Shown here: positions 20,717 through 55,204 of the stretch, piece after piece
Numbering within the stretch: the first letter of the stretch is position 1
How the letters are laid out: each line of letters starts with the position of its first letter
NCBI RefSeq assembly: GCF_016903815.1
Contig: NZ_CP069973.1
Source: Escherichia coli
Lineage (GTDB): Bacteria; Pseudomonadota; Gammaproteobacteria; Enterobacterales; Enterobacteriaceae
Length of the DNA stretch: 64,000 nt
Reading direction: 5' to 3' (one strand)
The notes under the pieces: generated by a model
Database searches by the model: none
Told to the model about the DNA's origin: nothing
The model's input: the letters and a program-made list of their open reading frames with translations, nothing else
Made by a program: the position numbers and the translations under genes

Positions 20717-20750
20717 GCCGGATGCGGCGTTAACGCCTTATCCGGCCTAC
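20717..20750. repeat. REP palindromic unit
   Basis: gccggatgcggcgttaacgccttatccggcctac. Confidence 0.7.
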
Positions 20751-52776: not shown

Positions 52777-53583
52777 TTAACCCTGACGCGCCGCTTTCGC
52801 CATCATCTTCTTCAGCGCATGAGAAACCGCAACAAACCCAAAGGTGGCGGTCACCATCGTTGCCGCGCCAAATCCAGATGCACAATCCATCCGCTTCGGC
52901 CCTTCTGCCGTGGCTTTCATCGCACACACCGTACCGTCTGACTGCGGGTACACCAGCGCTTCAGTAGAAAACACGCAATCCACGCCGAGCTTACCTTTAC
53001 TGTTTTTCACTACGCCAAAATCGCTTTTCAGGCGCTCGCGCAACTTCGCCGCCAGCGGGTCCTGAATCGTTTTCGCCAGATCGGTAACCTGAATCTGCGT
53101 CGGATCAATCTGCCCACCCGCGCCACCAGTTGTGACCAGTGGGATTTTATTGCGCCGACAATAAGCAATCAGCGCCGCTTTGGGCCGTACACTATCAATG
53201 GCATCAATCACGTACGAATAACCCACGCTCATATACTGCGCTACGTTATCCGGCGTCACGAAATCATCCACCACCGTTACACGGCACTCCGGGTTAATCT
53301 GGCGAATACGCTCCGCCATAACTTCCGCTTTTGCCAGCCCAACGTTATCGCGCAGGGCATGAATTTGCCGATTGGTATTGGTGACGCACACATCATCCAT
53401 ATCGATAAGCGTGATTGCGCCAATCCCCGTGCGCGCCAGCGCTTCCGCCGCCCAGGAACCGACACCACCGATACCAACCACACAAATATGCGCGTCAGCA
53501 AACAGTTGCAACGCTTTTTCACCATACAGACGCGCTGTGCCACCAAAACGCTGACGCCATGCATCACTAATTACCACAGACAT
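52777..53583 (-). CDS. tcdA: tRNA threonylcarbamoyladenosine dehydratase
   Basis: 268-aa ThiF/MoeB-like ORF (VVGIGGVGSWAAEALARTGIG). Confidence 0.9.
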   Translation of the reverse strand: MSVVISDAWRQRFGGTARLYGEKALQLFADAHICVVGIGGVGSWAAEALARTGIGAITLIDMDDVCVTNTNRQIHALRDNVGLAKAEVMAERIRQINPECRVTVVDDFVTPDNVAQYMSVGYSYVIDAIDSVRPKAALIAYCRRNKIPLVTTGGAGGQIDPTQIQVTDLAKTIQDPLAAKLRERLKSDFGVVKNSKGKLGVDCVFSTEALVYPQSDGTVCAMKATAEGPKRMDCASGFGAATMVTATFGFVAVSHALKKMMAKAARQG

Positions 53584-53635
53584 AGCACCTCAGAATTAAA
53601 AAGGGCGAGGTTATCCCTCACCCTAAACGCATAAA

Positions 53636-53735
53636 TGCCTGATGCGCTACGCTTATCAGGCCTACATAACTCCTGCAATATTTTGGATTTGCATGATTTG
53701 TAGGCCGGATAAGGCGTTCACGCCGCATCCGGCAT
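53636..53735. repeat. BIME: two REP units in opposite orientation
   Basis: gcctgatgcgctacgcttatcaggcctac and aggccggataaggcgttcacgccgcatccggcatg; flanked by near-identical direct repeats gaggttatccctcaccct / gaggttacccctcaccct. Confidence 0.75.
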
Positions 53736-53821
53736 GAACAACGCGCACTTAGTCAATAATCAGGATGTGAGGTTACCCCTCACCCTGTCATATCCGTAAA
53801 AACGGCATACAGAATATCACA

Positions 53822-54919
53822 TCAGCCGCTAAAGACGTTACCTGCGCCCGGGGCGGTTTTCAGCACCCAGACACGTCCATAGTGGTTGTACCAACCTGCG
53901 CGGTGTCCGGCTTCCGGCCCGATCCCTTGATAGATATCGAAGTGTTGGCCTTTGATTGCACCACCGACATCCAGCGCCACCATCAGACGCAGTTCGTACT
54001 GACCATTAAATTTGCCGTTATTATCCAGCAACGGCACTTCTGCCAGCAAGGTAGTACCTGGCGGAATAATGGAACGATCAGAGGCAACTGACGCGCGACC
54101 AACCAGCGGCACCGCACTTGCCCCTTTCACCGGAGCAAAAGATTGCGGTTTAAAGAAGACGAAAGACGGGTTCTGTTCCAGCAGCTCGCGAACCTCGGCT
54201 TCACTGTGTGTTTCGCCCCAGTGACGAATCGCCTGCATCGACATATCTTCTTTTTTCACTTCGCCACGGTCGATCAGCACCTTACCAATGCTGCGATAGG
54301 CATGACCGTTTTTCCCTGCATAGCTGAAAAAGTTAAGCGGACTGCCATCACCAAAGTCGATATACCCACTACCCTGCACATCCATAATGAAGTTATCCAT
54401 CAGGGAGTTACTGTAAGCGAGAATATATTTATCACTCAATGCCCCCGCGTAGATCTCCGCACGAGACGGCAGACGACCACGTTTTGGCGGCATACGGTAA
54501 ATAGGATACTGGAACTCGCCCTGGCGGGTATGGCGCGCCTGAATTACCGGCGTGTAATAACCGGTAAACTGCACGTTACCATAGTTGTCGGCACCTTCCA
54601 TCTGCCAGGCATCAATGCCGAACTGGCGCATATTGCGGGTATCACCGCCTGCGCGCAGCCACTCTTGCACCGCGTTATAAACATTACTCTGGTTGCCATA
54701 CAGACGCGGTGACGAATTACGGATATGGTTAATTTGCTCGGCAAAATCACCGGCGTTAATCGGCGCGCCAACGGCATCTGGCTGGTTCACCAGAGAGAAA
54801 GGCTGGGTAAATTTCCCGTCTTTATATTGCTGTCCGCGATCGGTTGGTTTGGAAGAGCAGGCGGCAAGCATTGCCACAACCGTGCCCATAAGAAGGTACT
54901 TTACCCAACGTCCTTTCAT
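53822..54919 (-). CDS. mltA: membrane-bound lytic murein transglycosylase A
   Basis: Track ORF 53822..55201 runs antisense over the tRNA genes; true start set at MKGRWVKYLLMGTVVAMLAACSS (lipobox) giving 365 aa. Confidence 0.9.
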   Translation of the reverse strand: MKGRWVKYLLMGTVVAMLAACSSKPTDRGQQYKDGKFTQPFSLVNQPDAVGAPINAGDFAEQINHIRNSSPRLYGNQSNVYNAVQEWLRAGGDTRNMRQFGIDAWQMEGADNYGNVQFTGYYTPVIQARHTRQGEFQYPIYRMPPKRGRLPSRAEIYAGALSDKYILAYSNSLMDNFIMDVQGSGYIDFGDGSPLNFFSYAGKNGHAYRSIGKVLIDRGEVKKEDMSMQAIRHWGETHSEAEVRELLEQNPSFVFFKPQSFAPVKGASAVPLVGRASVASDRSIIPPGTTLLAEVPLLDNNGKFNGQYELRLMVALDVGGAIKGQHFDIYQGIGPEAGHRAGWYNHYGRVWVLKTAPGAGNVFSG

Positions 54920-55127
54920 TGTTCTCTTCTTCAGGTTAAAAAATAAGGCGCAACGAAGATAACAAACCGCCGCGTTTAATGAAATGAGCAGCCTCTCCCT
55001 GACGCAAATTTTGCACAAAAAATAGGCTTTAGTGATTTGTTTTTGTTCAAAATCATGCCAAATCCGTGATCGGGGTAAAAAAAAGGTTGCATGAAAACGC
55101 GAGCGGAGTATAGTGCGCATCCACGGA

Positions 55128-55204
<77 letters not shown>

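Follow-up and report, generated by a model that had tools for sequence, protein, structure and literature searches.

Introduction

BIME-1, an element that also goes by the names RIP, RIB and REPIN, is the described system closest to the repeat region examined here. Excisions of 'a whole BIME-1' were reportedly mentioned in an abstract by Bachellier from 1997. Polymorphism of BIME-1 between strains is documented, 71% of BIME-1 length lying in strain-specific loops (Chiapello, 2005; PMC1187871), and a 2026 preprint states that the in vivo insertion mechanism is not established and suggests 'semi-random' insertion (10.64898/2026.03.23.713779). The presumed mobilizing enzyme, TnpA_REP of the REPIN-RAYT system, is an IS200/IS605-like Y1 HUH transposase that cleaves at C^T in vitro (PMC3333891); IS200/IS605-type enzymes are reported to leave no target duplication (PMC3333891, PMC2817692).

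Here, we analysed the spacer between tcdA and mltA of Escherichia coli within a 64-kb window, i.e. the whole stretch of 64 000 nucleotides under study. The element found there resembles described BIME-1 copies in its exact inverted Z1 and Y units, in a linker that aligns with the L type, in a conserved right and part of a conserved left external segment, and in its length of about 140–150 bp. Like them, it is extragenic, lies where a transcription unit has its 3′ end, and is present in some strains but absent from others; it differs in having no 12-bp GAGACTGATGAC end. The original prediction for this region had recognized a BIME bracketed by near-identical direct 18-mers, and had offered a composite repeat type or a past REP-associated rearrangement as interpretations. 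This account is borne out in part: it overlooked that the repeats are terminator hairpins and that the element is polymorphic between strains.

Results

A BIME-1 element between two copies of a predicted terminator hairpin

The gene order at the locus, csdA-csdE-tcdA/mltA/metZWV/amiC, is the same as in E. coli K-12. Both tcdA and mltA lie on the minus strand, so that the 238-bp spacer is at once the 3′ region of mltA and the 5′ region of tcdA. A promoter scan of positions 53400–54000 returned no σ70-like site, and the K-12 feature table (NC_000913.3) lists no REP feature for the mltA-tcdA intergenic region. The longest mechanical mltA reading frame (53822–55201, minus strand) starts with a TTG at 55201 and crosses tRNA-Met genes; annotated mltA spans 53822–54919. 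The features of the region are as follows.

52777–53583, minus strand: tcdA coding sequence, downstream of the element (open reading frame; matches annotated tcdA in K-12 and other genomes)
53586–53591, minus strand: tcdA Shine-Dalgarno sequence (GAGGTG on the minus strand), a few bases past the terminator T-run (from sequence)
53593–53624, minus strand: distal hairpin copy 1 and T-run, predicted mltA intrinsic terminator, holding the first 18-mer (terminator scan)
53625–53636, plus strand: left external segment of BIME-1, AAACGCATAAAT (alignment to the fepA-entD BIME-1 and 45 other copies)
53637–53665, plus strand: Z1-type REP, or palindromic unit (29/29 exact match to Z1)
53666–53699, no strand assigned: L linker of BIME-1, 34 bp (aligns to other BIME-1 linkers; Rfam ES036)
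53700–53733, minus strand: Y-type REP, inverted relative to the Z1 REP (34/34 exact match; inverted-repeat pairs)
53734–53766, plus strand: right external segment of BIME-1, ATGAACAACGCGCACTTAGTCAATAATCAG, and three further bases, GAT (paralogue homology to about 53763)
53767–53786, minus strand: proximal hairpin copy 2, GTGAGGTTACCCCTCACCCT, holding the second 18-mer (repeat search, fold)
53822–54919, minus strand: mltA coding sequence, the upstream gene whose terminator is the probable insertion target (open reading frame; K-12 b2813 mapped onto the window)

Read from the sequence, the two 18-mers are GAGGTTATCCCTCACCCT at 53607–53624 and GAGGTTACCCCTCACCCT at 53769–53786. They stand in direct orientation, are identical at 17 of 18 positions and are spaced 162 bp from start to start; with one mismatch allowed, the repeat extends to 20 bp (53605–53624 and 53767–53786). 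A search of the 64-kb window that allowed up to three mismatches gave these two matches and no others, with 0.01 expected from shuffled sequence. The predicted BIME with its bracketing repeats was thus correctly recognized, as was the position of the first copy; the second lies one base further to the left than had been proposed.

Over positions 1–137 of the 144 bp between the 18-mers, paralogues are ∼90% identical, e.g. the fepA-entD copy, which is the best match in empty-site strains. Because this paralogy reaches beyond both REPs, the segments outside them belong to the element. The Z1 29-mer, scanned against one genome per species, recurs exactly in 120 stretches (loci) of Escherichia and related genera. 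Several positions of the linker deviate from the consensus of the family, and the IHF site, a feature of the family, is putative here. When the external segments (GAGACTGATGAC-AAACGC... on the left, ...GCGCACTTTGTCAnCAATCTG on the right) were tested, the right segment and AAACGCATAAAT were present and the outer left 12 bp were missing; this canonical end, which usually precedes the left external segment, is also absent from the orthologues of the mltA-tcdA copy. The element is a single, extragenic copy. It occupies the 3′ end of a transcription unit, with the mltA stop codon on one side and the terminator of mltA on the other, and lies upstream of tcdA. Judged by its sequence, it is a complete BIME-1 consisting of Z1 REP, L linker and inverted Y REP, and is an ordinary element of an already catalogued type.

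Further matches were seen in the window. Rfam ES036 (CssrF sRNA, RF02751) matches 53658–53700 on the minus strand with 46.5 bits against a gathering score of 37.6, and the match covers the L linker together with the edges of the REPs on either side; what ES036 describes as an 'sRNA family' thus amounts to the linker of BIME-1. The Y REP is also matched by naRNA4, with a score under its threshold. Another Y-type REP (33/34 match) lies at 20717–20750 on the plus strand.

The predicted intrinsic-terminator hairpin of mltA is present in two copies, and each 18-mer makes up the greater part of one of them. On the minus strand, copy 1 reads AGGGTGAGG-gataa-CCTCGCCCT, followed by the T-run TTTTAATT. 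The terminator scan gave a stem of nine pairs (53624 to 53602) with a T-rich tail, and the RNA is predicted to fold with −17.2 kcal/mol; copy 1 thereby has the GC-rich hairpin and immediate U-run by which a rho-independent terminator is defined. Copy 2, just past the mltA stop codon, has an AT bulge, no T-run and a predicted fold of −14.7 kcal/mol, and falls outside this definition. The copy next to tcdA has kept its T-run and still looks like the mltA terminator, while the copy next to mltA, having none, would be a mere hairpin within a 3′ UTR lengthened by 162 nt. Copy 1 has as its homologue the one hairpin present in the empty E. coli alleles described below, and likewise that of Salmonella and Cronobacter; copy 2 is identical to the hairpin of the empty ST131-type alleles.

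Filled and empty alleles in E. coli

To compare the intergenic length with that of other strains, a 501-bp query across the spacer was compared with 5426 complete E. coli genomes, 5425 of which gave a match. The match was full length in 2751 genomes (51% of E. coli); the other matches sampled spanned 339 bp, i.e. 162 bp less, which is exactly the spacing of the repeats. In the three empty alleles that were sequenced (ST131 O25b:H4, O111:H8 and WP4), one hairpin with its T-run is present, the sequence being AAAAAGGG[T/C]GAGGTTA[C/T]CCCTCACCCTGTC. In the ST131 hairpin, the 9-bp palindromic stem is perfect (−17.7 kcal/mol). A filled allele therefore consists of an empty allele to which a 142-bp insert and a second, 20-bp copy of the hairpin have been added.

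Allele-specific 39-mers found the empty T..C variant in 1104 genomes and the empty T..T variant in 886, in each case at one place in every genome. The C..T probe matched 2997 genomes, filled alleles being included through their left copy, and one record contained two matches. In about 430 filled genomes, the left junction was not classified by this census with 39/42-mers. A T..T left copy adjoining the BIME was seen in only three E. coli genomes. By these searches the 18-mer is unique to the locus, the 39-mers matching one place per genome.

The named strains with an empty allele are presumably of phylogroups B2 (ST131, clone D i14 and APEC O1) and B1 (O111:H8, W and SE11), and those with a filled allele of phylogroups A (K-12 and BL21) and E (O157:H7). 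The gene tnpA_REP is missing in B2 and B1 strains (Ton-Hoang, 2012), and E. coli without a RAYT has fewer REPINs (Bertels and Rainey). Judging by the phylogroups of these named strains, loss of the RAYT and loss of BIME-1 may be linked.

Age of the insertion and direction of change

In Salmonella enterica and Cronobacter sakazakii, the mltA-tcdA spacer of ∼108 bp contains no BIME-1. It has one homologous hairpin with a T-run directly before the tcdA ribosome-binding site, and the motif TCTGAGGT likewise follows the hairpin in both. Because these outgroup genera have a single hairpin, the single hairpin is ancestral. Both also carry a GC-rich palindrome upstream of the conserved terminator hairpin, e.g. 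GCCCGATAACGCGATCGCTATCGGGC (L133/L134 580–705 in Salmonella; L136 580–705 in Cronobacter), which may be a genus-specific REP.

Among the 120 loci with the Z1 29-mer, the orthologous spacer is filled in E. albertii (L031) and in two genomes labelled 'E. coli', E69 (L114) and SCPM-O-B-8794 (L088), which appear to be separate species representatives in the collection used. The BIME of these three lineages is 95–97% identical to that of the window, compared with at most 90% for paralogues, and all three share its atypical left junction, with the left repeat directly abutting AAACGC and the 12-bp end missing. In SCPM-O-B-8794 the two hairpin copies are identical (20/20). The simplest reading, on grounds of parsimony, is one BIME-1 insertion before the split of E. 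coli and E. albertii, followed by precise deletions between the repeats in E. coli lineages.

This reading has to accommodate the variants of the empty hairpin (T..C in 1104 genomes, T..T in 886 and C..T in the remainder), which require several events or recombination. Empty E. coli alleles could instead have retained the ancestral state, with the filled allele spreading among Escherichia by homologous recombination. Such retention would fit the empty outgroup genera, the frequent recombination known for E. coli, and the empty alleles themselves, which are perfect hairpins in three haplotypes, two of them (T..C and T..T) not obtainable by one crossover from a K-12-type filled allele. We nevertheless consider it unlikely as the general explanation: the filled allele is found in E. 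albertii, in two divergent Escherichia lineages and in 51% of E. coli; the 3–5% divergence of the BIME resembles vertical descent when compared by eye with the displayed flanks; the ancestral-type T..T left copy stands beside the BIME in just the three genomes mentioned; and precise deletion is classically seen where 20-bp direct repeats enclose inverted repeats. Retention or import of an empty allele via recombination is nevertheless a live alternative to insertion followed by deletion for some of the pattern.

Hairpin duplications flank many BIME-1 copies

Every full-length BIME-1 was extracted from the 120 loci (45 copies, from Escherichia and Pseudocitrobacter), and the left flank of each was compared with its own right flank, using mismatched flank pairs as the null and their 99th percentile as the cut-off. 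Twenty-three of the 45 copies scored at or above this cut-off (observed mean 12.8; null 6.1 ± 1.5). The flanking repeats are locus-specific and 16–30 bp long, mostly 19–23 bp with a median of 22, and almost all of them form GC-rich hairpins (−9 to −19 kcal/mol); frequently an A-run precedes the left copy and a T-run follows the right one. No detectable flanking repeat was found at about half of the BIME-1 copies, including fepA-entD.

The junctions are regular. The right copy begins at the first base past ...CAATCTG in 16 of 24 cases, and the left copy stops directly before the conserved GAGACTGATGAC in 15 of 24. At 30 of 44 right ends and 24 of 44 left ends, the element is abutted by a hairpin of −8 kcal/mol or stronger; for control positions at a distance of 60 bp the figure is 6–7 of 44. 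The dyad of the hairpin marks the centre of the duplication (offset mostly 0 to +1), and the two largest duplications (27 and 30 bp) occur at the two largest hairpins. Across copies, the hairpin span, taken as the outermost predicted pair, correlates with duplication length at Pearson r 0.33 and Spearman rho 0.49, A-U extensions adding noise. It is mainly the 27- and 30-bp cases, few as they are, which suggest that the cut sites track structure and not a fixed stagger. The target hairpins have no sequence in common with one another or with the element.

The mltA-tcdA copy departs from this geometry in having no 12-bp GAGACTGATGAC end and in a right hairpin copy whose first 3 bp do not match; owing to these two irregularities, the original duplication could have been 20 or 23 bp.

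These data bear on what the 18-mers are. That they are terminal direct repeats of a composite BIME element has in its favour that they directly abut BIME-1 on the left side. Yet the 39-mer context occurs at one place per genome, among 132 loci the 18-mer matches only the mltA-tcdA orthologues, other BIME-1 copies are flanked by different, locus-specific hairpins, and one copy stands without any BIME in the empty alleles and in other genera. The composite repeat type of the original prediction is therefore refuted. Still less credible is that the 18-mers resemble each other by chance, or that they are merely conserved spacer sequence unconnected with the BIME: the shortness of an 18-mer is all that speaks for it, against the 0.01 matches expected in the window, a 162-bp polymorphism equal to the repeat spacing, and the same architecture at more than 20 other loci. 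The other half of the prediction, a past REP-associated rearrangement, is correct, with the repeats as the footprint of a BIME-1 insertion. Very probably, the rho-independent terminator hairpin of mltA was duplicated when a BIME-1 entered it, the 18-mers being the cores of a target-site duplication of ∼20–23 bp.

Other polymorphic loci, opposite orientations and tandem arrays

Three further loci are polymorphic in E. coli, namely rutG-ymdF (filled in 1734 genomes), fdnI-yddM (2070) and the spacer between a prohibitin-family gene and tkt (1365). The empty alleles have one hairpin each. Filled and empty alleles differ by the element plus the duplication at fdnI-yddM (about 178 bp) and prohibitin-tkt (about 173 bp); at rutG-ymdF the difference between filled K-12 and the empty allele is 174 bp (599 versus 425). 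At rutG-ymdF, BIME-1 lies in opposite orientations in K-12 (DH10B, L130) and SCPM-O-B-8794 (L081), with the same duplicated 22-bp hairpin around each; opposite orientations in one hairpin mean that the insertions were independent. For the gudD-barA BIME-1 (L087), no empty allele was present among the matches spanning the intergenic region, and most genomes, including K-12, matched the barA flank only. In NZ_AP040219.1 (strain NR329, H191), an IS200/IS605-family tnpA is annotated inside the fdnI-yddM spacer with the BIME-1/hairpin polymorphism.

E. albertii NBRC 107761 carries a tandem array (L035 1220–1945) of four hairpin-plus-BIME-1 units and a final hairpin, with a 177-bp period and the terminator-like hairpin AAACCGACGCCAAAAGGTGTCGGTT between units. 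An array of this period is the product expected of unequal exchange between the flanking repeats. Its four units contradict the textbook view of BIME-1 as single-copy. A second E. albertii array (L014 6956–7531) has a period of 147 bp and about four BIME-1-like units; the 18-bp segment that joins them is no obvious hairpin, and the units are without the canonical left end.

Discussion

Insertion of BIME-1 into the mltA terminator is argued for by the duplication itself, by the single-hairpin allele in other strains and genera, by the generality of the pattern and by independent insertions in both orientations in one hairpin, each of them demonstrated above. The bracketing repeats are accounted for by a whole-hairpin target duplication common to many BIME-1 copies. 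We could not find a description of such a duplication flanking BIME-1 in the accessible literature; a prior report, e.g. in the key BIME papers of the 1990s, is possible.

The footprint is not the one expected of the presumed enzyme. BIME-1 resembles the REPINs mobilized in the REPIN-RAYT system as a non-autonomous inverted-REP doublet that is long-lived and vertically inherited, and both of its ends contain the C^T dinucleotide cleaved by TnpA_REP (GAGAC^TGATGAC and CAATC^TG). The RAYT locus itself is situated outside the window. However, IS200/IS605 elements insert as single strands beside a short target and without duplication, whereas BIME-1 has a 16- to 30-bp duplication over a whole hairpin, at mltA-tcdA and at 23 of 45 copies. 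Since Y1 transposases of this type, the TnpA_REP family, are reported to make no target duplication, the presumed mobilizing enzyme fails to predict the footprint. Given this expectation, either the in vivo reaction departs from the IS200/IS605 model or another activity takes part.

A terminator-type hairpin as the target, duplication of the entire hairpin, fixed element ends, insertion in both orientations and, by parsimony, clean loss are established by the comparisons above. From these we tentatively propose, with somewhat less than even confidence, that BIME-1 is a structure-targeting element: it would enter terminator hairpins by symmetric cuts at their base and leave a dyad-centred duplication of the whole hairpin that grows with hairpin size, and the same repeats would then drive both precise loss and tandem amplification. 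The two strands would be cut on opposite sides of the hairpin, either in an extruded cruciform or in a hairpin on each strand; resolution of a cruciform, or a hairpin-recognizing nuclease acting on each strand, would give the same pattern of cuts. The stagger would be the palindrome itself, and fill-in after joining of the element would duplicate the hairpin. Symmetric cutting at a hairpin base lies outside the IS200/IS605 model, and in the literature searched we found no description of it for REPs or REPINs; the claim that it is new to these elements is as tentative as the proposal to which it belongs.

A duplication could also arise with no staggered cut at all, if template switching or gene conversion brought in a copy of BIME-1 while the terminator hairpin was being replicated, and the re-copied hairpin became the second copy. 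Replication is generally known to stall and slip at hairpins, the mltA-tcdA junction is untidy, with 12 bp missing and an odd GAT, and RAYT-type enzymes are not expected to duplicate their target (PMC3333891). Against this, the element ends at fixed nucleotides across loci (GAGACTGATGAC...CAATCTG) that abut the repeats, both orientations occur in one target at rutG-ymdF, and the target hairpins, being unrelated in sequence both to one another and to BIME-1, offer no microhomology to guide a switch. We regard this route as improbable. Retro-transposition, i.e. copying from an mRNA 3′ end, was also considered and rejected, as the duplicated hairpin is that of the target and not that of a donor.

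For insertion by cutting at the hairpin, the nearest analogue for structure-directed targeting is provided by IS1272 and TnSha1, staphylococcal elements of the IS1182 family. These are likewise targeted to hairpins and terminators by structure, with no primary-sequence consensus, and likewise show repeated independent insertions into one hairpin in both orientations (PMC4923244). IS1272 differs in cutting inside the stem and deleting part of the target without duplication, whereas BIME-1 leaves two complete hairpins. BIME-1 is also like classical MITEs in being small and non-coding, in duplicating its target and in its presence/absence polymorphism. MITE duplications are fixed and short, however, whereas those of BIME-1 (16–30 bp, median 22) follow the size of the target hairpin; moreover, neither end of BIME-1, GAGACTGATGAC or CAATCTG, is the inverted copy of the other, the REPs being sub-terminal inverted repeats. 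REPs have been stated to lack MITE signatures (Delihas, 2011; PMC3184786).

The same duplication provides a route for loss. Tn10- and Tn5-type insertions are precisely excised by slipped mispairing between the target duplications that flank their inverted repeats. BIME-1 is comparable in that direct repeats bracket an insert with internal inverted repeats, and loss restores the target exactly; the Tn10/Tn5 repeats are 9 bp, those of BIME-1 are at least 20 bp and are themselves hairpins, and BIME-1 loss is deduced from population data. With an insert placed between 20-bp direct repeats and containing inverted REPs, precise loss is possible, and it may proceed by slipped mispairing or by recombination between the repeats. 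Its product would be a single perfect terminator, the allele of about half of the E. coli genomes. Tandem amplification would likewise result from slippage or recombination between the flanking repeats.

How REPs and BIMEs arrive at new sites has been an open question for about 40 years. A reproducible footprint, consisting of a terminator-hairpin target, duplication of the whole hairpin, fixed ends and insertion in both orientations, makes this question approachable by experiment, and accounts simply for the presence of BIME-1 at operon 3′ ends and for its clean gain and loss between strains. Because one hairpin copy keeps its U-run, insertion of BIME-1 need not destroy termination. At mltA-tcdA the consequence is modest, in that the 3′ UTR of mltA, immediately upstream of tcdA, is extended by 162 nt with REPs in some strains and not in others. 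If BIME-1 does target structure, this would explain its location at 3′ ends, its polymorphism between strains and its loss in RAYT-less lineages, and the whole-hairpin duplication offers a testable clue to how BIME-1 inserts and how it is lost.
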